Assembly: GCA_965221905.1 (NCBI GenBank)
Contig: OZ244922.1
Location: forward strand, 416,001-480,000
DNA length: 64,000 bases
From: Chloroflexota bacterium
GTDB taxonomy: Bacteria; Chloroflexota; UBA11872; VXOZ01
Direction: 5' to 3'
Of this stretch, positions 16,560-33,972 are shown piece by piece. The position numbers and the translations under genes are program-made. The notes below the pieces were generated by a model. That model had not been told where the DNA came from. It worked only from the letters and a program-made list of their open reading frames with translations, and made no database searches. Every line of letters begins with the position of its first letter. Position 1 is the first letter of the stretch.

Positions 16560-16855
16560 TACGCCAAGCATGTAGGTAAGTGGGATTATACTGCTTCGGC
16601 CGACCGGGCGGCCGTCCAAAGTGCTTGTTTTTCGCGGCGTTGAGATGGCGAGAGGCCGTTCCTTGTAGCATCTTTTAGATCCCGCTGGTTCGTCGCAGAA
16701 TGACAGGAGTGCTGTACGCGAGGTTGCCCCTTGAAGTGCGGCTTCTGTCTCGCTTCTCGACGCTCCCCTGCCGGTATGTCTTGTATCCTTTCAGTTCATA
16801 TCCGTCCAGCAGCGTCCTGCATATTGGTGTGCGCCCCATTTGCGCAACTCTGCCG

Positions 16856-16940
16856 CAACTCACAGAAATATCACAGAAGATCGGTGGTGGAGTATACTTC
16901 TGGACAAGACCGAATTGCTACATTAAGGAGAACGGCCGAG
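16856..16940 (+). promoter_or_regulatory. promoter/RBS block paralogous to 11155-11239: TCAC direct repeat, -10 TATACT, AAGGAGA
   Basis: Same motifs at identical distances from the ATG. Confidence 0.6.
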
Positions 16941-19900
16941 ATGTGTCGGCTCGCCATCCTTGCACTATTTTGGCTGATACTGGCCGTAGCTGCTACCTTG
17001 GCAGTCTCGTGCGGCCCTCCGCCTGCCCGTGACGAACCAGTGCCCCCTGCCAGACCGTCGCCCCGTCCTTCAGTTGACAGGCCTGGAGACATCGTCTGGT
17101 TCTATCGGTATGAAGGGCGCAGTGCGGTAGTTTCCTCTTCCGCGGTGGTTGACGGCGTGATTTACTTTGGCGCGGGAGATGGCTACGTCTATGCGGTGGA
17201 CGCAGCCACGCGCAAGGTAATCTGGCGCTTTCAAACCGGAGCCGGTGTTTTTTCCTCCCCTACGGTAGTGGACGGCGTGGTCTACGTCGGCTCAAGTGAT
17301 AACCACGTCTACGCTCTGGATGCTGACACCGGCGAACACATCTGGCGCTATCTGACTGGCGAGCGTGTTGATTCTTCGCCTGCAGTAGTGGATGGCGTGG
17401 TGTACGTCGGGTCATTCGATGACCACGTCTACGCTCTGGATGCCGCCACTGGCGCACTCATTTGGCGCTTTCACACCCGTGATAGCATAGATTCTTCCCC
17501 GGCGGTAGCGGACGGTGTGGTCTTCTTTGGCTCCATAGATAGGCATGTCTACGCTGTGGACGCGGCTACCGGCGAACTCCGCTGGCGCTTCCCGACGGGA
17601 CACTTTGTACGATCTTCCCCAGCGGTGGTGGACGGCGTAGTCTATGTCGGTTCCTATGATAGCAACCTGTACGCACTGGATGCTGTCAGTGGAAAGCGTC
17701 TTTGGAGTTTCAGAGCCGGACTTCCTGTTCACTCGTCTCCGGCAGTCGCTAACGGAACAGTATATTTCGGCTCAAGCGATAGCTACGTCTATGCGGTAGA
17801 TACAGGTAGCGGCGAATTGCGCTGGCGTTACCAGACAGGCGGCTATGTGAGTTCCTCTCCGGCGGTGGCAGACGGCGCAGTCTTCGTTGGCTCAGATGAC
17901 GATCATGTTTACGTTCTAGATGCTGGATCCGGAGAACTCCGCTGGCGCTTCCGAACTGATTCAAACGTGAGTTCCTCCCCAACGGTGGCCGATGGCGTGG
18001 CCTACGTCGGCTCAATTGACGGCCATCTGTACGCCCTGGATGCGAAGACCGGCAAACGGCGCTGGCGCTTCCTCACGGGCGAAGGCGTGACCCATCCAAC
18101 GCCGGAGGACGCCAACGTCGTTCACGTTAGCGCGGGCGCCAATCATATTTTCGCGCTTGATGCCACCAAGGGGACGCTGTATTGGCGCCTCTATCAAGCC
18201 GGCGACGTGGTGTGGCAAGCGCCAACCGTCGCAGACGGCGTGCTGTACGCCACCTATGCTGACGGCCGAGTCTCTGCCGTCGACGCGATTACGGGCGATG
18301 TGCTGTGGACTTTCCAGGCTGATGGCGGAATTACGTCCTCTCCGGCGGTGGCCGACGGCGTGGCTTCCTTCATTTCGCAGGATGGGTTTGTTTACGGGCT
18401 GAATGCCAGTACTGGAGAGCAACTATGGCGCGTTCAGACCGGCTACTTCGTTGAGACCTCTCCGGCGATAGGCGGCGGCACGGTCTACGTAGGCTCGGAC
18501 GACGGCTACCTCTACGCCCTGGATGCCGGCAGCGGCGAATTGCTGTGGCATTACCTAACGCAGGGCGAAGCGTGGGGCACACCGGCGGCCACCGGCGGCG
18601 CGGTCTATGCCGGTTCGGACGACGGCCGCTTCCACGCGCTAGACGCCGGTGGCGGGGAACTACTGTGGCGCTATGAAGCGGTGGGAGCACTTTGGGGCTC
18701 GCCGGCAGTAATTGCCGGCGCAGTATATGTGGGCTCCGATGATGGCTACGTCTATGCATTTGATGCCGAGAGCGGCGAACTATTCTGGCGCTCCAAGACA
18801 GACGGATTCGTACTCCATCCCCCAGTCATGGTAGGCGGGGTGGTCTACGCTGGGTCAGACGAAGGCCGTGTGTACGCGCTGGATGCGGAAAAGGGGAAGC
18901 AACTGTGGCTCAGTTATAGGCAAGGCGCGCTGCAAGCCTCCCCTTTGGTGAGGGACGGCAGAGTCATTGTCAGTACAGATAAAGGGTACGTCCACGCGCT
19001 CTTCGCTTATGATCCGAACCCTCAGCCGGAGCCTCAAGCAGCGTTGGAGACCGGAGTCAGTGAGCCGCGCCATGGGGACTTACTCTGGCGGTATCGGACC
19101 GGCGCCGGCGTCTGGTCTTCCCCCGCAGTTGAAGATGGCGTGGTTGCCATCGGCTCTGACGATCATCACGTGTACACCCTGGATGCCGCTACCGGTGAAC
19201 TCCTCTGGCGTTTCCGGACTGAAAGTGTTGTGAACTCTCCTCTCACAATTCATGGCGGTGTGGTCTACGTCGGGTCAGACGATCACTCCGTCTACGCGCT
19301 GGATGCCATATCCGGCCACCTTGTGTGGCAATTCCAGACCGATGGTTGGTTGAACTCTTCGCCAACTGTGGCAGGTGGCGTGGCCTATGTTGGTTCGCAA
19401 GACGCCTTCGTGTATGCATTGGACGCCGAGAAAGGCGACCTACTGTGGCGGTATGAGACGGGCGCTGAGGTGAGTTCTTCTCCGGCGGTGGGGAACGGCG
19501 CGGTGTACGTAACCTCCCTTGATAGATACGTTTACGCTCTTGACGCCGAGAACGGCGCACTCATCTGGCGGTATGCAACCGGCGCAGGGGTGGACTCGTC
19601 CCCGACCCTGGCCGACGGTGTTGTCTACGCCGGTTCGCTGGATAACTACCTCTATGCGCTCGACGCTGACACGGGCGCGTTGCTCTGGCGCTACCGGACA
19701 TATTCCGAAATATGGTCCTCCCCGGCAGTGGGCAACGGCATGGTCTACGTCGGCGCCCGAGATCTCCGCGTACACGCCCTGGATGCCGAGAGTGGCGAGC
19801 TTGTTTGGGAGTACGCAACCGGCGCAGAGGTGAATTCTTCCCCTACGGTGGCGGACGGCGTGGTCTACGTCGGCTCGTTTGATGATCACCTCTACGCGCT

Positions 19901-20042
19901 GGACGCCGCGACGGGCGAACTTCACTGGCGCTACCGGACAGGCGGTGGCATCTGGTCTTCGCCGGCAGTGGTTGACGGCGTGGTCTACGTCGGCTCGAGT
20001 GACGGCTACGTCTACGCGCTGAAGGCCACGCCCGGCGAGTAA
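16941..20042 (+). CDS. PQQ/BamB-type beta-propeller repeat lipoprotein 3 (24 blades)
   Basis: Signal peptide ending LAVSC, RBS AAGGAG, regular 40-aa repeats, ends ATPGE. Confidence 0.9.
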   Translation: MCRLAILALFWLILAVAATLAVSCGPPPARDEPVPPARPSPRPSVDRPGDIVWFYRYEGRSAVVSSSAVVDGVIYFGAGDGYVYAVDAATRKVIWRFQTGAGVFSSPTVVDGVVYVGSSDNHVYALDADTGEHIWRYLTGERVDSSPAVVDGVVYVGSFDDHVYALDAATGALIWRFHTRDSIDSSPAVADGVVFFGSIDRHVYAVDAATGELRWRFPTGHFVRSSPAVVDGVVYVGSYDSNLYALDAVSGKRLWSFRAGLPVHSSPAVANGTVYFGSSDSYVYAVDTGSGELRWRYQTGGYVSSSPAVADGAVFVGSDDDHVYVLDAGSGELRWRFRTDSNVSSSPTVADGVAYVGSIDGHLYALDAKTGKRRWRFLTGEGVTHPTPEDANVVHVSAGANHIFALDATKGTLYWRLYQAGDVVWQAPTVADGVLYATYADGRVSAVDAITGDVLWTFQADGGITSSPAVADGVASFISQDGFVYGLNASTGEQLWRVQTGYFVETSPAIGGGTVYVGSDDGYLYALDAGSGELLWHYLTQGEAWGTPAATGGAVYAGSDDGRFHALDAGGGELLWRYEAVGALWGSPAVIAGAVYVGSDDGYVYAFDAESGELFWRSKTDGFVLHPPVMVGGVVYAGSDEGRVYALDAEKGKQLWLSYRQGALQASPLVRDGRVIVSTDKGYVHALFAYDPNPQPEPQAALETGVSEPRHGDLLWRYRTGAGVWSSPAVEDGVVAIGSDDHHVYTLDAATGELLWRFRTESVVNSPLTIHGGVVYVGSDDHSVYALDAISGHLVWQFQTDGWLNSSPTVAGGVAYVGSQDAFVYALDAEKGDLLWRYETGAEVSSSPAVGNGAVYVTSLDRYVYALDAENGALIWRYATGAGVDSSPTLADGVVYAGSLDNYLYALDADTGALLWRYRTYSEIWSSPAVGNGMVYVGARDLRVHALDAESGELVWEYATGAEVNSSPTVADGVVYVGSFDDHLYALDAATGELHWRYRTGGGIWSSPAVVDGVVYVGSSDGYVYALKATPGE

Positions 20043-20317
20043 AGTTCTGGACATCGCGACTTTGGGATCGTGCGGGTTTGTTTGCTCGCAGGGTTTCCTG
20101 GACGCTCGCCTAGCGCCACGGACGGAAGTAGAGAGGCCGCTTTCCAGGCAGCCCGATGGCCCTCGCGAGTTCAGCGCCGTCCGGTGGGGGAAATGTACGT
20201 GGCGGTACACTCGGATAGCGCGACCTGCGCGTTGCCTGCCGGGCATATCTTGACACGCCACTGGTAGGATACTCTGGTAGCCAAGAGTAAATGGAAATCT
20301 TCCGGAGTACGGATGAC

Positions 20318-23300
20318 ATGCCGCGAGCTACTTTTTCTGCCGTCCTAGCAATGCTGATCGTCGTTGCCGCTTCACTGTTGGCAGGGTGCAACGGCGACTA
20401 TGAGGAAACTCCTCCCAAGGTGTATCAGACGGGAGAAGTGTTCTGGAGCTACCAACACACGAGCGTGGCATTAGATTCCTCACCTTTGGTCGTCAATGGT
20501 TTAGCTTACGGAGGATCTCCATACGGCGTATACGCGGTGAATGCCGATACAGGCGAACTTGCTTGGCACTTCAGTACCAGGTATGGAGTTAGTCACACTC
20601 TGGCAGTAGCAGACAACGTGGTCTATGCCGGCGCGGACTATAAGGGCGTGTACGCGCTGAATGCTGACACCGGTTCATTCATTTGGCACTTCAGGGCAGA
20701 CAGAGCAACAATTTCATCCATGGAAGTAGCTAACGGCGTGGTGCACTTTGGCACAAAGGGAGGCGATAAGCCTAATTATTTGAACGCCGTCGACGCCACA
20801 AATGGAGAGTTGATCTGGCAAGTCGAGGTCAATAACCCCTTTGCGCCTCAGACGGTAGCAAATGGGGTAGTCTATACAGCCTTCTGGGAATGGAATGTCG
20901 AGAGTTACATCCTACTCGCATTGAATGCCGATACCGGCCAAATTATGTGGCGCTATCCGGTGGAGGGAAATGTCTTTGCTCCTCCATTGGTTGCTGGCGG
21001 AATTGTGTATGTAGGCGCCGAGGGTGGCTTCATATACGCCATAGAGGCAGCAACTGGCGATCTTTTGTGGCGGTACCATGCTGGTGGGAGATACGTAATC
21101 TCCCTGGTCGTAGCCGGAGGCGCAGTGTTCGTAGGCACTGATAGCGACTCCGTACACGCGTTGGATGCTGCCAATGGTGAACTCATTTGGCGCTATGGGA
21201 CCGGAGGCGAAGTGTATGGATCGCCACTAGTCTCTCATGGCGAGACATACGCTAGCTCTAGTGATGGCAACGTATACGCTTTGGATGCTGCTTCTGGCGC
21301 ACTTAGGTGGAAATCCAATATAGGGAGCTACGGGGACTTTCTCCCAGCTAACACTGACGGGGTGATTCACATTAGGGCGCAAAATCAGGATGTGCATACA
21401 CTAGACGCCGCCAGCGGAGAACTACTCTGGCGTTTTGAGAATGGTCTTGAGACCTATGGTAGTAGGGCCAACCTGCCCGATGTAGTGGGCGGTGTCGTCT
21501 ACATTGGGTCACGAGATGGCCTGGTCAGCGCACTCGACAGCGTGACTGGCGAGCGGCTCTGGCGCTTCCACACCGACACTGTAAAGCTCTCCTACCCGGC
21601 AGTGAATGACAATGTACTCTACGTCGGCTTGGGCGCCGAACACATATACGCGCTCAATGCCGCTGACGGTGCGCTGTTCTGGCTCTATCAGACCAAGGGC
21701 GTGGTGCGGGCCCCGCCGGTGGAGGCGGATGGGACGGTCTACGCCGCTTCTGAGGATGGTGCCGTCTACGCATTGGATGCTACCACCAAAGAGTTGCGCT
21801 GGCGCTATCAGACAGACGGCAGCATCTTCTCTTCACCGGCGGTGGCTTATGGGCTGGCCTATGCCGCATCTAACGATGGCTACGTCTACGCGCTCGATGC
21901 CGCCAGCGGCGCATTGCAGTGGCGCTTCCAGACCGGCGGCGAAGTGCGGTCGTCTCCGACGGCGGCTGGCGGCGTGGTTTCGGTGATTTCACGGGACGGC
22001 TACGTGTACGGGCTTGATGCCAGCAACGGTGAGCAACTATGGCGCTACCAAACTGGTTATTTCGTGGAATCGTCGCCGGCGCTGGCTGGCGGCGTGGCCT
22101 ACGTGGGATCGGATGACGCCTACCTCTACGCCCTGGATGCCGATAGCGGGGAAGTGCTGTGGCGCTATTTGACGAACGGGGAAACATGGGGCTCTCCAAC
22201 GGTGATCGGCGGCGCGGTCTACGCGGGCTCAGACGACGGCTACGTGTACGCGCTGGATGCCAACAGTGGCGACCTGCTCTGGCGCGCTGAGACAGGCGAC
22301 TTCGTGTTGCAATCGCCGACAATGGTTGGCGGCGTCGTGTACGCGGGATCGGAAAGTGGCTACGTCTACGGCCTCAGCGCCGAGAATGGCGAACTGCTGT
22401 GGTGGTCCCAAATCGATAGCGCGGTACAGGCCTCCCCCGTGGTGATGAACGGCAGGGCGTACGTGGTATCCGAGAGCGGCACCGCCTATGCACTGTTCCT
22501 TCATGAACCGGAGCCGGAATCGCATCTGGCAGGCGAACTCATCTGGCGCTATCAAACGCGCGATTATGTCGTTTCCTCGCCGGCAGTGGCTGATGGCGTC
22601 GTCTACGTCGGCTCATATGATCGCCATTTGTACGCCTTGAACGCTGCCTCCAGCAAATTCCTCTGGCGCTACGAGATTGGCCGGTATCTGCGATCCTCTC
22701 CGACGGTGGCTAACGATGTGGTCTACATAGGCTCTAACGAGGGCTACGTATACGCTTTGGATGCCGTCACCGGAAGCCTCCATTGGCGCTATTTGACGGA
22801 AGGTGAAGTATCTGGATCTCCCACTATCGTTGACGGTATCGTCTACGTTGGCTCACATGATGGACACGTGTACGCGCTGAACGCGACAAGCGGCGCTCCG
22901 ATCTGGAGTTTCCAGACGGATGGCACTGTGTATGCCTCTGCAGTGGTTTCTCAAGGCATGGTCTATGCCGGTACAACAGATAGCTATTTGTACGCGATGG
23001 AAGCTGCTACCGGCGAACTCCGTTGGCGGTTCAAGACGGCCGATACGATATACCGGTCGGCGGCAGTAGCTGATGGAGTCGTCTATGTGGGTTCGAGTGA
23101 CCACTACCTGTATGCCCTGGATGCCGAGAATGGCGATCTCCTGTGGCGCTTCCAAAGCGAAGAATACATGTGCTCCGCGCCGGCAGTGGCCGGCAATGTG
23201 GTTTCCATTGGATCAGGCGATTTCCACGCGTACGCTCTAAATGCCACTACGGGCGAATTCCTCTGGCGCTACCGAACTGGGAATAGTGTATGTTCCACTC

Positions 23301-23500
23301 CGGAAATATCCGAGGGCATGGCCCACGTTGGGTCAAGTGATGGAAGTGTTTATGCTCTCGTTGCCGAGACCGGCGAACTCCTCTGGCGCTACCGGACAGA
23401 ACGCTCCGTTTATTCCTCCCCGACCATTGTCGACGGCGTAGTGTACATTGGCTCAGGAGACGGCTACCTGTACGCGCTGAAGGCCCGGCCGGGGGAGTGA
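20318..23500 (+). CDS. PQQ/BamB-type beta-propeller repeat lipoprotein 4 (25 blades)
   Basis: Lipobox LAGC, GGAG upstream of ATG 20318 (alternative start 20291), ends ARPGE. Confidence 0.9.
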   Translation: MPRATFSAVLAMLIVVAASLLAGCNGDYEETPPKVYQTGEVFWSYQHTSVALDSSPLVVNGLAYGGSPYGVYAVNADTGELAWHFSTRYGVSHTLAVADNVVYAGADYKGVYALNADTGSFIWHFRADRATISSMEVANGVVHFGTKGGDKPNYLNAVDATNGELIWQVEVNNPFAPQTVANGVVYTAFWEWNVESYILLALNADTGQIMWRYPVEGNVFAPPLVAGGIVYVGAEGGFIYAIEAATGDLLWRYHAGGRYVISLVVAGGAVFVGTDSDSVHALDAANGELIWRYGTGGEVYGSPLVSHGETYASSSDGNVYALDAASGALRWKSNIGSYGDFLPANTDGVIHIRAQNQDVHTLDAASGELLWRFENGLETYGSRANLPDVVGGVVYIGSRDGLVSALDSVTGERLWRFHTDTVKLSYPAVNDNVLYVGLGAEHIYALNAADGALFWLYQTKGVVRAPPVEADGTVYAASEDGAVYALDATTKELRWRYQTDGSIFSSPAVAYGLAYAASNDGYVYALDAASGALQWRFQTGGEVRSSPTAAGGVVSVISRDGYVYGLDASNGEQLWRYQTGYFVESSPALAGGVAYVGSDDAYLYALDADSGEVLWRYLTNGETWGSPTVIGGAVYAGSDDGYVYALDANSGDLLWRAETGDFVLQSPTMVGGVVYAGSESGYVYGLSAENGELLWWSQIDSAVQASPVVMNGRAYVVSESGTAYALFLHEPEPESHLAGELIWRYQTRDYVVSSPAVADGVVYVGSYDRHLYALNAASSKFLWRYEIGRYLRSSPTVANDVVYIGSNEGYVYALDAVTGSLHWRYLTEGEVSGSPTIVDGIVYVGSHDGHVYALNATSGAPIWSFQTDGTVYASAVVSQGMVYAGTTDSYLYAMEAATGELRWRFKTADTIYRSAAVADGVVYVGSSDHYLYALDAENGDLLWRFQSEEYMCSAPAVAGNVVSIGSGDFHAYALNATTGEFLWRYRTGNSVCSTPEISEGMAHVGSSDGSVYALVAETGELLWRYRTERSVYSSPTIVDGVVYIGSGDGYLYALKARPGE

Positions 23501-29345: not shown

Positions 29346-31376
29346 ATGAGAGAGTTTTCAAAAGAGTTGACTTATGTTAGACAAGCCTTCGCAGATGGCC
29401 ATGCTTTACTCGTCGGAGAAGGCAGGAACCAGCGTATTCAGTATGTTGATTCAGACCACTCCGATCGTTGGGCCGACCCAGAGGAGAAAGTTCGGGCCGA
29501 ATTGTGGGCAGAGTTGATTTATAAGTACGACTATTCGCCAAACCGGATTCGCTTTGAGGTCAATGTTCCTCGTCGCACGCCAAACGACTTTGCTGACCTG
29601 GTGATTTATAGTGACGAGGAACTAAAGCAACCCTATTTTGTTTTTGAGTGCAAACGTGCAGACGTGTCTGACACTGAATTCAATCAATCTATAGAGCAAT
29701 CGTGTGGCAACCGCGCCAGCTTGGGGGCGCAATTCAGTGGGGCTGTTGCTGGTCTGACCCGACGCCTATTGCGATTTGACGCTTTCCCCCCTGGTGAGCG
29801 CGACAAGAACCATCTCACAGACATTCCCATACGCTACGGCAATCTAGCTGAGTGGCGCTTCTATAAGAACGAACAAGGCCGCGACCTTGCCGCCGTTCCG
29901 CGTGAAGGGTTGCGCGCCGCTATTCGCAAGTGCCATCAAACGCTTTGGGAGGGTGGCCGCCGCAGCCCTATTGAGGCGTTCGGTGAGTTCTCTAAGCTCG
30001 TCTTCATCAAGCACCGTGACGAAAAGAAACTGGAGCGCAAGAACGGCGAACCGTACGCATTCCAACGCCGCGATGGAGAGACTGCCGTCGAACTTGCTGA
30101 CCGCATTTTCGAACTCTACGACGCTGAAAAGGAACGGGAGCCGGACGTGTTCTCCGATCGCATCAACGTTGACGCAGCTATCGTCGCGCAGTGCGTGGAG
30201 CACCTGGAGGGCATTTCGCTCGACCGTACGGAACTCGACACCAAGGGCGTCGCATTTGAGGAATTCATGGGCGGTTTCTTTAAAGGTGACTTTGGACAAT
30301 ATTTCACGCCCCGCGAACTCATTGCCTTTGCTGTGGAGATGATTGACCCAAAACGAGATGACCAAATCCTCGACCCCGCCTGTGGGTCTGGCGGCTTCTT
30401 GCTTTACGCCCTTGATCATATTCGTCGCGAGGCCACTGAGTACTACGAAACTGACACCGTCGACCACTTCCGATTCTGGCACGACTTTGCGGAGAACTAC
30501 CTTTTTGGTATTGACATTTATGATGCGCTTGTGCGGGTCGCCAAGATGAATATGATCATCCACGATGACGGACACACTAACATCCTCGGCCATGACGCTC
30601 TTGACTTCATTGAAGAAATTCAGGGACAGAATTCCGGCATCACCAAAGAGAAATTCGACCTTATCCTCACCAATCCACCCTTTGGTTCGGTCATCAAGCG
30701 TATAGAAAAGGGAGACGCCTATATTGAGCAATTTGAACTGCGCCACTACCTCAGCAAACAATGGCCTCTATACACTGAAGTAACAGGGACTGATGTTGAA
30801 ATTGGAGCGAAAGGTGGGGCAAGAGCTGTAAGGGAGCGCGCAAGCATTAGAACGGAAATTGTGTTCCTAGAGCGCATTCACACTTTTCTCAAGCCAGGTC
30901 TTGGCCGCGCTGCAGTAGTGCTACCCGATGGAATTCTAACGAACTCCTCCCTCCTGGGGGTGCGTCATTGGCTGCTCGCCCACTTTCAAATCTTGGCAGT
31001 TGTTAGCCTTCCCGACTTCGCCTTTCAGCACTATGACGCTGGTGTGAAGTCAAGTATTGTGTTCCTGCGTCGACTTCACGTTGGCGAGACGGTACCCGAA
31101 GACGTTGCTATATTCATGGCCCTTGCTGAAAACATCGGCTACGACGCAACTGGTCGTAAGACCTTTAAAGTGACAGTGGAGAAAGAAGTGCCAGGCAAGA
31201 CGATGATTGAACGGCAAAGCTGTGACCTATTCGACTATCGGGTTTTCTACGAGTGGAGCAATACAAATCCGGAGGAGCCCGCATGGAGTGAGCGCCGTCG
31301 AGAAATTATCCCCAATACAGGCCTCGTTGCTCAGTGGCGTGCATTCCAGCAGGACCCGACACCTTTTTTCGTATAG
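29346..31376 (+). CDS. fused endonuclease-N6-adenine methyltransferase (HSDR_N-like + N6_Mtase), Type IIB/IIG-like RM subunit
   Basis: PEEKVR, AD...ECK nuclease motif; GQYFTPR, DPACGSGGFL, TNPPFG; AAGGAG RBS. Confidence 0.9.
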   Translation: MREFSKELTYVRQAFADGHALLVGEGRNQRIQYVDSDHSDRWADPEEKVRAELWAELIYKYDYSPNRIRFEVNVPRRTPNDFADLVIYSDEELKQPYFVFECKRADVSDTEFNQSIEQSCGNRASLGAQFSGAVAGLTRRLLRFDAFPPGERDKNHLTDIPIRYGNLAEWRFYKNEQGRDLAAVPREGLRAAIRKCHQTLWEGGRRSPIEAFGEFSKLVFIKHRDEKKLERKNGEPYAFQRRDGETAVELADRIFELYDAEKEREPDVFSDRINVDAAIVAQCVEHLEGISLDRTELDTKGVAFEEFMGGFFKGDFGQYFTPRELIAFAVEMIDPKRDDQILDPACGSGGFLLYALDHIRREATEYYETDTVDHFRFWHDFAENYLFGIDIYDALVRVAKMNMIIHDDGHTNILGHDALDFIEEIQGQNSGITKEKFDLILTNPPFGSVIKRIEKGDAYIEQFELRHYLSKQWPLYTEVTGTDVEIGAKGGARAVRERASIRTEIVFLERIHTFLKPGLGRAAVVLPDGILTNSSLLGVRHWLLAHFQILAVVSLPDFAFQHYDAGVKSSIVFLRRLHVGETVPEDVAIFMALAENIGYDATGRKTFKVTVEKEVPGKTMIERQSCDLFDYRVFYEWSNTNPEEPAWSERRREIIPNTGLVAQWRAFQQDPTPFFV

Positions 31377-31423
31377 GCCCCGCTAAGGCAGCAGAAGCAA
31401 AAGCATTTGCGCTTAGGCGGGGC
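31351..31423 (+). promoter_or_regulatory. candidate -1 programmed ribosomal frameshift signal
   Basis: AGGA 31351-54; in-frame heptamer T_TTT_TTC 31364-70; 6-nt spacer containing the TAG stop; stem-loop 31377-31423. Confidence 0.7.
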
Positions 31424-32005
31424 AGCACCCAGGGACGGTTGGACGCGAAATTCCATTTTGATCACGAACGACTGCGCTCTCGAATAGATTCAACCCCAAT
31501 ACCCAAACCGAAGTTAGGTGAGGTCTTGGTCTCGATCGCGAGCGGCGCGACGCCCAGACGAAGTGACTCTTCACTTTACACTAGCACGGGAGTCAAGTTT
31601 CTACGAATCTTGAATGTTCAAGATGGTGAAATCTTAGAAGAAAATGTGAAGTATATCACTGACGCCGTTCATGAGGGCAGTCTTCGTCGTTCTCAGCTTG
31701 CATCAGGTGACGTCCTGATGACTATTACCGGTAGAGTGGGATCAGCAGCGGTTGTTCGAGAAAACAATCTTCCTGCTAACATCAATCAGCATGTCGTTCG
31801 CTTGAGGATTGATACTCGACGTTGCTTGCCGGAATTCCTCTCTGCCTGGCTGAATTGCCCAGCTGGACTTGAACTCTCAAACCACCCCGTGTCAGGAGGC
31901 ACGCGGTCTGCACTCGACTACGGTGCCATTCGAGATTTACGTGTTCCTTTGCCGGAGTCGTTACGGGCTCAAGAAAAGCTACTTTGCAACCTAGGAAAGG
32001 TCTGA
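31370..32005 (+). pseudogene. specificity subunit (HsdS-like) first half, TRD1; interrupted by IS
   Basis: RLDAKFH, KLGEV..IASGATP, GDVLMTITGRVG, NINQHV, LRVPLP; -1 frame relative to the RM gene, no SD-backed start. Confidence 0.8.
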
Positions 32006-33180
32006 GCAAGTCGGGATATGCATCGGTTTATGGGTATGTGCGGGATTGTGGGGTGGTTTGAGGTGTGTCTTGGCATGTGGGAGGGGCTGTTTTGGCTTTG
32101 ATGCGGTCCCGTTGGAAGCGCAATACGCTCCTGGCCGTGTTTTGGGCGCACTGCTCCCGTGTCATGTTGCCAACTGGCGTGCGGCCGTCATCACATTGGT
32201 CAGCCCCAGCAGCAACGCCAGCCGTTGCCTGTTCTTGGACAGACCCCGGTAGCGCACCGTGGCGTAGCCGAAGTGCCGCTTCACCCACAGGAACGGATGC
32301 TCTACTTTGGCCCTAACCGATGCTTTGCGCTGCTCTGCCAGCGCCGCCGCGCTCTCAGGCGCCAGTTTCCGCCGCAGCCCCGGCTTGAGCGCCACCTGCC
32401 ACGCTACGGCGCGCCCCTGATGCTCCGGTCGCTTCTGCACCCCCACGTACCCGGCGTCTCCCCACACCTGCTGCTCTGCGCCGTGCAGCAACGCCGCCGC
32501 TTGCGTTACGTCGTGCACGTTGGCCGATGTGGTGGTGAAGCTATGCACGAGCCCCGTCTGTGCGTCGACGCCGATGTGCAGCTTCATCCCAAAGTAATAC
32601 TGGTTCCCCTTCTTCACCTGCCGCATCGCCGGGTCTCGCTCCCCCTCTCGGTTCTTCGTCGATGTCGGCGCCGCGATGATGGTCGCGTCCACTACCGTCC
32701 CCGCTCGCAGCCGCAAGCCCCGACCTGCCAAATGCGCGTTGATCTCCGCCAACAACCCCTCTCCTAACCGGTGCTTCTCCAGCAAATGCCGAAAGTGCAG
32801 AATAGTCGTCTCGTCCGGCAGCGCCTCTGACAGCCGCAGCCCCACGAACCGCCGCACCGGTTCTACCTCGTACAGCATGTCCTCCATCCCAGGATCGCTC
32901 AGGTTGTAGAACAACTGCACGCAGTGTATCCGCAGCATTACCGACAAGGGATACGGCCGCCGCCCCCGCCCTGGCTTGGGATAGTACGGCGCAATGCGCG
33001 CCTCCATCTCCGCCCACGGGAGCAGCGCGTCCATCCGCTCCAAGAACTTCTCCCGGCGCGTCTTGCGCTTCTTCTGCGCGTACTCCAAGTCGGCAAACGT
33101 CGGTTGCTCCATTACCCAGCTCCTCACCGTATCCTGCTTTCTTGCTATGATACTATGCCAGGGACTTGTTCAGAGTTTTC
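31995..33180 (-). mobile_element. IS5-family insertion sequence inserted at CTAG
   Basis: Imperfect terminal IRs GAAAGGTCTGAGCAAGTC / GACTTGTTCAGAGTTTTC; CTAG on both flanks (31991-94, 33181-84). Confidence 0.92.
32162..33112 (-). CDS. IS5-family DDE transposase
   Basis: QPTFAD..KKRKTRREKFL, PDETTI, VDATII, GMKLHIGVD, GDAGY, RAKVEHPF, RYRGL. Confidence 0.95.
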   Translation of the reverse strand: MEQPTFADLEYAQKKRKTRREKFLERMDALLPWAEMEARIAPYYPKPGRGRRPYPLSVMLRIHCVQLFYNLSDPGMEDMLYEVEPVRRFVGLRLSEALPDETTILHFRHLLEKHRLGEGLLAEINAHLAGRGLRLRAGTVVDATIIAAPTSTKNREGERDPAMRQVKKGNQYYFGMKLHIGVDAQTGLVHSFTTTSANVHDVTQAAALLHGAEQQVWGDAGYVGVQKRPEHQGRAVAWQVALKPGLRRKLAPESAAALAEQRKASVRAKVEHPFLWVKRHFGYATVRYRGLSKNRQRLALLLGLTNVMTAARQLAT

Positions 33181-33183
33181 CTA

Positions 33184-33972
33184 GATAAAGCTCGAGAAGA
33201 GCGAAATGCAAACCTGTCAGCAGCAAGAGACCTGCTGGCTGGCATTGACGGTTTTCTTCTAGGTGCGCTTAACATTGACTCACCGCCCAAAGACTCACGC
33301 CGAGTCTTTGCGGTTCGTCATGAACAATCGCGTGACCAAGGGCGGCTTGACCCGGATTACTATCACCCGGAGCGAATGCTGACCTTAGATCGACTCAGCG
33401 CGGACTTTACGAAGATGACAGTCCTCTCCCTGGCAGAGGTAGCCAGTTTCGAGCGCAACCAAATCAGGACACCCATAGATAACTACCTTGGCCTTGCAAG
33501 CATTCAGAGCGACACAGGAGAAATCACTGATTCCATAGAAACCGCACGAGGTGCCTGTTTTATCTTTCGGCCAGATGATGTTCTATTTGCCCGTTTACGG
33601 CCGTATCTCAACAAAGTATATTGCGCAGAGGAGGATGGTTGTTGCTCGACTGAATTCCATGTCCTTAGGGTAAAGGACTTCAATTTGCTGCTTCCAGAAT
33701 ACTTGGCGGTTATCTTGCGTAGTCGACTTGTCCTCGCGCAGACCACTCACATGGTGACTGGTAACACACATCCTCGCCTTGCAAGCGAGGATGTGGCGAA
33801 TCTCAGAATTCCGGTTCCAAGCAGGGAAGTCCAAGCCTCAATCATTACAGAAGTCCGTCAACGCCGTGATTTGGCACGTCATAAAAGGGGTCAAGCTGAA
33901 GCAAGTTGGATGAATGCCAAATTGCAGTTCCAAGAGCAACTGTTAGATCCGGACATCTCTGCTGATGTCTAA
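33184..33972 (+). pseudogene. specificity subunit second half (linker helix + TRD2)
   Basis: RLDPDYY, DVLFARLRPYLNK, STEFHVL, LRIPVP..EVQ; joins the first half in frame when the IS is removed. Confidence 0.82.

Follow-up and report, generated by a model that had tools for sequence, protein, structure and literature searches.

A conserved junction signal suggests programmed -1 frameshifting between the catalytic and specificity genes of a Type IIB-like restriction-modification system

The 64,000-nucleotide stretch of Chloroflexota DNA considered here (contig OZ244922.1, positions 416,001 to 480,000; hereafter the window) derives from a genome assembled as a single contig of 3.52 Mb that is 99.64% complete. 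It contains a gene for a fused nuclease and methyltransferase, referred to as RM (restriction-modification), followed in the -1 frame by an open reading frame (ORF) for a specificity protein, S, which in this copy is split by an insertion sequence (IS). The coordinates of these genes, and of the elements at the point where they meet, are given in Table 1. We present comparative evidence that the junction between RM and S may be a programmed -1 ribosomal frameshift site, through which a proportion of the ribosomes translating RM would continue into S.

Table 1. Features of the RM/S locus in the window
Feature	Coordinates	Strand	Description
RM gene	29346..31376	+	ORF of 676 aa; zero-frame product ending ...PFFV; N-terminal PD-(D/E)XK nuclease fused to gamma-class N6-adenine methyltransferase
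AGGA resembling a Shine-Dalgarno sequence	31351..31354	+	Possible optional stimulator, 9 nt upstream of heptamer
Slippery heptamer T_TTT_TTC	31364..31370	+	X_XXY_YYZ phase in RM frame
RM stop codon TAG	31374..31376	+	One sense codon past heptamer; adjoins hairpin directly
S, 5' part	31370..31994	+	-1 frame; linker, conserved FA(V/L)(K/R)RG...RLD motif, first target-recognition domain and start of central helix
Stem-loop, 47 nt	31377..31423	+	Proposed frameshift stimulator; outer stem GCCCCGC/GCGGGGC plus inner stem
IS5-family element, 1186 bp	31995..33180	-	Inverted ends; CTAG target duplication at 31991-31994 and 33181-33184
IS transposase	32162..33127	-	NF033581, E = 1.4e-98
S, 3' part	33181..33972	+	Rest of central helix and second target-recognition domain; same frame as 5' part once IS is removed

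The domains of the RM protein indicate the class of enzyme to which it belongs. Residues 45-114 match the Pfam family HSDR_N_2 (E = 1.2e-9) and the methylase domain matches N6_Mtase (E = 5e-32), while the motifs D...ExK, DPACGSGGF and NPPF are readable in the translation. Among proteins of solved structure the best match of RM is the Type IIB enzyme RM.BsaXI (PDB match 8w0p, E = 1.1e-23). PADLOC labels the gene 'MTase_I', a Type I methylase. A classical Type I system, comprising HsdR, HsdM and HsdS, does not fit, as the HsdR motor and nuclease subunit is without a match in the genome. The preliminary description of the locus had noted the lack of an HsdR gene in the vicinity; indeed none was found near RM and S, and the search extended to the complete genome returned no TIGR00348 match, the control search being positive in nine of 14 reference genomes. 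Identity with the MADS system was also considered, but the NCBIfam equivalog models identify only distant relatives (for MAD2, 288.5 bits where the cut-off is 720; for MAD5, 42.8 and 29.5 bits where it is 400). Because of the RM domains, the match to BsaXI and the absence of hsdR (TIGR00348) from the genome, the locus is classified from its sequence as a motor-less two-gene RM plus S pair of the BsaXI/BcgI design, which we term 'Type IIB-like'. Similar to BsaXI and BcgI, the catalytic chain consists of an N-terminal PD-(D/E)XK nuclease and an N6-adenine methylase, S has two recognition domains and there is no helicase subunit, although at 676 aa RM is shorter than its 916-aa counterpart in BsaXI.

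The 3' end of the RM ORF reads CCT TTT TTC GTA TAG, and the phased heptamer, the stop codon and the hairpin all lie where the preliminary description had placed them. The hairpin starts 6 nt past the heptamer and has a predicted energy of -30.9 kcal/mol (z = -4.56), a stability that none of 200 shuffled sequences equalled; a search of positions 31000-32000 against Rfam returned no family match. The -1 frame, which was correctly described as encoding an S with two target-recognition domains, is open from 31292. Its sole ATG, GTG or TTG upstream of the heptamer is, as had been stated, a GTG (31334) 43 nt inside RM that is not preceded by a Shine-Dalgarno (SD) sequence. A covariance model of the junction, R1, built from the homologous loci described below, matches the window at E = 8.6e-14 and has no second match in the organism's own genome. 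Thus, the junction signal in the window is more than chance. The possibility that the hairpin is a transcription terminator was rejected: the T run precedes the hairpin and none follows it, while on the opposite strand there is an A run after the hairpin.

The S gene is recognizable on both sides of the IS. The 5' part matches Specificity_I of PADLOC (E = 7.2e-23) and, weakly and below the cut-off, Methylase_S of Pfam (E = 0.0013), while the 3' part matches both (Methylase_S, E = 6.7e-7; Specificity_I, E = 1.3e-20). In the window allele the -1 frame runs into the IS and meets a stop codon at 32003-32005. An allele free of the IS is present in contigs of runs X4 and X7, from two other studies, which join 31989 to 33180 and leave S intact. 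These contigs differ from the window at 17 positions over 1454 nt, but retain the run of six Ts (T6) and the hairpin; the sole difference within 31265-31445 is a T>C at 31372, a silent change in the S frame. The predicted shifted product of the IS-free allele comprises 675 + 470 = 1145 aa, arithmetic that bears out the earlier estimate of a 676-aa RM and an RM-S fusion of ~1145 aa with the IS removed, whereas in the presence of the IS the product would be 675 + 211 = 886 aa. Contigs of four runs from four studies show no indel in the T run, a check from which rare variants drop out and which would miss minority T7 alleles or transcripts, and the homologous loci include short-read assemblies; T6 is therefore no assembly error, and the seven-T reads that had been considered, whether as assembly error or phase variation, were not seen.

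The IS5-family element is present in 11 copies in the 3.52-Mb genome, all 100% identical, and in most of them the match includes the CTAG ahead of the left end. In a contig of run X1 the depth is 1000-2700 over the IS and ~85 over its flanks. The identical copies and the high contig depth point to a recent transposition burst. Judged from the empty-site relatives X4 and X7 and the 11 identical copies, the insertion into S is recent and the window copy is damaged, with S cut after the first recognition domain. The system in the window is thus probably disabled, or would at most produce the 886-aa RM-half-S protein; such a truncated product could have a new, symmetric specificity.

To place the junction in a wider context, a scan using one genome per species identified 566 stretches encoding a relative of RM, of which the best 80 were retained. 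The layout of the window recurs in 70 of these loci. Of the remainder, three are in-frame fusions of RM and S (L003, L005 and L047), five lack the T run (L069, L070, L072, L079 and L080) and two are cut by contig ends before the C-terminus (L059 and L078). The carriers represent 16 phyla and the layout is spread over both major clades of the RM tree, on which a label-shuffle test revealed no significant clustering of the non-frameshift states; many of the loci, however, come from related metagenome-assembled genomes produced by few projects, and the counts that follow are not counts of independent events. Cultured organisms with an intact locus include Microcystis ichthyoblabe FBCC-A1114 (L033), Chlorogloea sp. 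CCALA 695 (L021) and cyanobacterium ESFC-1 (L060). RM is 75-76% identical over its full length to homologues of 661-699 aa, while the last 200 residues of the homologous RM proteins display 44-79% identity. Among the best 120 protein homologues of RM, 117 are of 661-699 aa, three are of 903-917 aa and none approaches 1145 aa.

The 70 loci and the window itself provide 71 junctions, in all of which S occupies the -1 frame; in 52 of these S extends for 431-738 aa after the heptamer, the longest, 738 aa, being an unusually long frame in L061 (3053-5266). The heptamer is T_TTT_TTC in 57 junctions, T_TTT_TTA in seven, T_TTT_TTT in six and A_TTT_TTC in one, such that 70 of 71 conform to a phased T_TTT_TTN. 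The RM stop codon lies 3 nt, or one codon, past the heptamer in 68 junctions and directly after it in the other three. The first Phe codon is invariably TTT, and the codon that precedes it ends in T in 70 of 71 cases, irrespective of the residue specified (P, L, S, R, A or N). In the remainder of these genes, whose median GC content is 58%, TTT accounts for only 1096 of 2716 Phe codons (40%), FF is encoded by TTT_TTY in 35 of 95 instances, and T-ending codons have a median frequency of 15%. Since TTT and T-ending codons are near-invariant at the junction against this background of 40% and 15%, selection here acts on the nucleotides and not on the protein.

The hairpin is similarly retained. 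When the 70 homologous junctions were folded with RNAfold, a hairpin covered the same place in nearly all of them (median minimum free energy -32.5 kcal/mol, median z -2.6), and in an anchored search its first pair lay 5-7 nt past the heptamer in 66 of 71. Covariation was assessed in the 47 junctions with a common register, which align without gaps (alignment A2, also the source of R1). The structure was named by the analyst, a choice that favours it, but slid and shuffled controls were included: 83% of cells are paired, compared with 37-50% when the 3' partners are slid, both sides have changed in 11 of the 16 pairs, and none of 500 shuffles reached any of the observed measures. In L045 and L060 a Pro codon of the 5' arm has T in place of C at its third base, and the partner codon in the 3' arm specifies Gln rather than Arg; pairing is preserved although the protein is altered. 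In seven loci (L017, L026, L027, L039, L041, L052 and L076) the distal arm has been lost, and the same 5' arm pairs with a new, proximal partner five bases away. These sequence comparisons indicate that the hairpin is under selection. Three features had been named in the preliminary description for testing in homologues, namely a conserved heptamer, the -1 phase and a hairpin with covarying pairs, and it is these that the 70 loci share.

The signal appears to be specific to this gene pair. Over the 909,834 bases of the loci R1 has 74 matches on the plus strand, all at RM/S junctions, and 15 on the minus strand, of which 14 are the antisense of the same hairpin and one is a stray (E = 0.083). 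When 151 genomes of the same phylum were scanned, with stricter filters and a limit of 34 scored candidates for each genome, the genome of the window was alone in giving a match (1 of 151), and three other genomes of the same genus lacked an R1 match. The element is sporadic, like restriction-modification systems. A tblastn search with RM of plasmid and phage sequences identified relatives at only 30-43% identity, in six plasmid records and one phage record, and these alignments did not reach the C-terminal junction.

Of particular relevance are the loci in which S lies beside RM but does not depend on a shift. In L003, L005 and L047 RM reads straight into an S extension of 227-242 aa and the outer stem of the hairpin is lost, with R1 scores of 46, 22 and 29 bits, respectively, against a median of ~65 for the other junctions. 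In L056 an ATG, coupled through ATGA, overlaps the RM stop codon and can start S, and both the first T of the heptamer (the X base) and the hairpin have gone (20 bits). Thus, the signal has been lost in all four loci in which it would not be required. In-frame fusions had been put forward as an observation that would contradict frameshifting. Such fusions do exist (three of 80 loci), but they carry only one recognition domain and have lost the hairpin. Pfam detects a single Methylase_S domain in the extension of L005 and of L047 and none in that of L003, and the ORF that comes next does not encode S. A half-size S needs one RM per S, the 1:1 ratio that a plain fusion supplies, which is consistent with the frameshift model. 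Downstream of the in-frame RM-half-S, L003 (7685-8545) and L047 (7679-8470) have a conserved ORF encoding 264-287 aa (39% identity, E = 3e-55) that has no Pfam match and contains a CVAHNRRP motif, and a similar start follows the RM stop of L005 near 7686; this ORF may be a third component of the variant. On the RM tree L003 is placed apart from L005 and L047, although the downstream gene is common to L003 and L047. Among the loci without a T run, L079 and L080, from candidate phyla, encode shorter RM proteins of 590-595 aa and have S in the +1 frame with its own starts, while in L069 (5001-7337) RM is extended by 201 aa and a gene for a MarC membrane protein occupies the place of S.

Broken S genes are also frequent elsewhere in this family. 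Short S ORFs that are not cut by contig ends number 14; from the Pfam matches five are split by an IS or a frameshift, and that of the window is split by its own IS. Transposases of three kinds stand behind a truncated S, in L001 (8202-9323), L016 (8192-8533) and L022 (7668-8879, minus strand), while the second recognition domain of L039 and of L050 is resumed in a different frame. It might be proposed, therefore, that the window simply contains a decaying gene, in which the T run of an ancestral in-frame RM-S lost one nucleotide in parallel with insertion of the IS, and that nothing is programmed. The disruption of the window copy by the IS, the frequency with which S is broken by transposases (L001, L016 and L022) or frameshifts (L039 and L050), and the existence of in-frame fusions would all fit such a history. 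Decay, however, does not predict the same phase, heptamer, stop codon and hairpin in 70 other loci from 16 phyla, nor a T6 run in the IS-free X4 and X7, and the size distribution of the best 120 homologues, in which the ancestral ~1145-aa form is absent, also argues against it. We consider this explanation extremely improbable.

The features described above match those of established frameshift cassettes. In the dnaX gene of Escherichia coli, which encodes tau and gamma, and in the orfA-orfB pairs of IS3 and IS1, a stable stem-loop lies 5-7 nt past an X_XXY_YYZ heptamer, as is the case here, and two products arise from a single mRNA in proportions determined by the shift, as is proposed here. 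The shifted product of IS3 is, like the predicted RM-S, the longer fusion, while that of dnaX is the shorter one. The RM/S junction differs from both dnaX and the IS elements in that the genes it joins encode the catalytic and specificity subunits of a restriction enzyme, and in that the zero-frame stop codon is one codon past the heptamer. U_UU.U_UU.C, the heptamer of the window, is used by IS elements and, with U_UU.U_UU.U, belongs to the motif class described in the main text of one genome-wide study as the most efficiently shifting in E. coli (PMC4066793). By analogy, a fraction of the ribosomes translating RM would slip back one base on T_TTT_TTC, through tandem slippage of tRNA-Phe in the P and A sites, stimulated by the stable hairpin 6 nt downstream. 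Ribosomes that do not slip would add one further residue and stop, generating the 676-aa RM, while those that slip would synthesize the RM-S fusion, of 1145 aa in the IS-free allele; S, which lacks a dependable start of its own, would be read via the slip. That some form of recoding fuses RM to S we regard as highly likely from the comparative data, and programmed -1 ribosomal frameshifting, giving both RM and RM-S, is the best explanation, and a likely one.

Several observations weigh against this interpretation, or against parts of it. The S gene of the window is broken, and so nothing at this locus is functional in the manner described. The kinship among the loci, mentioned above, reduces the weight of their number. 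The SD-like AGGA, proposed in the preliminary description as part of the signal, is indeed present 9 nt upstream of the heptamer in the window, but occurs at that position in only 17 of 71 junctions, and any AGGA, GGAG or GAGG within 20 nt upstream in only 19; it arises from Lys/Arg-Asp codons. In contrast to the upstream SD stimulator of dnaX, therefore, this motif appears to be no conserved part of the signal and is at best an optional enhancer. RNAalifold, when applied to the raw MAFFT alignment of the 70 junction sequences (A1), returned only four pairs and -0.71 kcal/mol, a poor result that probably stems from the misalignment of loops of differing length. Finally, an in-frame start codon for S is present upstream of the heptamer in 43 of 71 junctions, and 26 loci have one no more than 60 nt downstream. 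In loci with such a codon independent initiation of S is possible.

It could be argued from these start codons that RM and S are merely overlapping genes, S being initiated at a GTG or ATG that precedes the heptamer by 30 nt, at a codon within the hairpin itself or through termination-reinitiation, with the hairpin regulating coupling or mRNA stability. Indeed 38 of the 43 upstream starts are at -30, a Val/Leu codon at +48 in the 3' arm is GTG or ATG in 15 of the 70 readable junctions, and an ATG overlaps the RM stop codon in L022 as well as in L056. The frequency of the -30 start, however, is forced by the RM protein, because its conserved Gln-Trp (CAR TGG) gives RTG when read one base early, and in 24 loci a stop codon in the -1 frame intervenes between this start and the heptamer; in four of the 24 (L037, L038, L074 and L075) that frame opens just 3 nt before the heptamer. 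No start codon is found upstream of the heptamer in 28 of 71 junctions, and 19 are devoid of ATG, GTG and TTG over the whole interval between the point at which the -1 frame opens and a position 60 nt beyond the start of the heptamer. In the window itself the codon at +48 is CTT, and the GTG at 31334 is without an SD. Because of the loci that lack a start, the stops after the -30 codon and the variability of the +48 codon, independent initiation of S is not a conserved feature, and the independent starts in random phase that had been envisaged as a refutation were not seen: the frame is always -1 while the starts are not conserved. Overlapping genes, moreover, leave unexplained both the conserved NNT TTT TTN codons and the loss of the hairpin from the in-frame fusions. 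This explanation is thus very unlikely.

Transcriptional slippage provides a further challenge to ribosomal frameshifting, as the same products would arise if RNA polymerase added one U within the T6-T8 run, and some mRNAs thereby encoded RM-S in frame. The signal is after all a homopolymer run, mostly of six Ts but of seven or eight in some loci. UUUUUUU is also under-represented in all three frames of E. coli genes, for which the main text of the study concerned suggests transcriptional slippage or a high indel rate (PMC4066793). Slippage of the polymerase, however, gives no role to a conserved, covarying hairpin situated downstream at the 5-7 nt spacing typical of ribosomal shifts, and a ribosomal event is also suggested by the conserved zero-frame stop codon, which 68 of 71 junctions place one codon past the run. 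Runs of six are, in addition, short for efficient slippage by bacterial RNA polymerase, the known cases using ~9 or more or an upstream nascent hairpin. We consider transcriptional slippage unlikely, and ribosomal frameshifting remains the interpretation that we favour.

If frameshifting does occur, it may have a bearing on subunit stoichiometry. RM and S are a textbook binding pair, and natural fusions show that a covalent link between them is tolerated. In the single-chain Type IIB enzymes AloI, CjeI, PpiI and TstI, R, M and S reside in one polypeptide; the proposed shifted product would have the same R-M-S domain order, and natural in-frame RM-half-S relatives exist in the present family (L003, L005 and L047). 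The proposed product differs from the AloI type in that the fusion would be made by only a share of the ribosomes, beside free RM, and the in-frame relatives carry one recognition domain, not two. BsaXI assembles as an (RM)2S heterotrimer (PMC11997821). Its RM and S frames were expressed and purified separately and then reconstituted, and the portions of that report covered here do not mention recoding (PMC11997821). RM and RM-S might, by extension, assemble as (RM)(RM-S), a tethered equivalent of the BsaXI (RM)2S, with the rate of the shift setting two RM to one S. The 2:1 assembly is here inferred only from the solved BsaXI complex (PMC11997821), which counts against the model to that extent; whether the shift rate serves this stoichiometry we regard as evenly balanced. 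The most complete form of the model, in which the signal is ancient, is present in at least 16 phyla and is the sole route to S, about half of the ribosomes slip, RM and RM-S are made in equal amounts and form a tethered (RM)(RM-S), and the efficiency of the shift encodes the 2:1 ratio, is more tentative, and we would rate it slightly short of even.

The neighbours of RM and S are housekeeping genes, with Ldh_2 upstream and ComEC and proC-like genes downstream. Further away in the window, two tandem genes (16731-20042 and 20291-23500) encode proteins of 1103 and 1069 aa that consist almost wholly of PQQ/BamB-type beta-propeller repeats.

In the parts of the recoding literature covered here, programmed frameshifting in bacteria has been described mainly for insertion sequences, phage genes, dnaX and candidate clusters of varied function. 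A full-text literature search found no report linking frameshifting to restriction-modification. The portion searched of a 2016 review of recoding contains no restriction-related term (PMC5009743), and the main texts of two genome-wide frameshift screens contain no such cluster (PMC3711429 and PMC4066793), although their supplementary cluster tables, which may bear on the matter, were not covered. If the interpretation presented here is correct, the RM/S junction would be a widespread cellular frameshift cassette that is easy to assay and rich in natural covariation. It would be recognizable in annotation by the motif NNT TTT TTN, zero or one codon, a stop codon and a hairpin, and would explain the wrong annotation of thousands of loci as an 'orphan type I methylase plus start-less or pseudogene S'. 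It would also answer in simple terms the question of how a Type IIB-like enzyme keeps two catalytic chains for each specificity chain.

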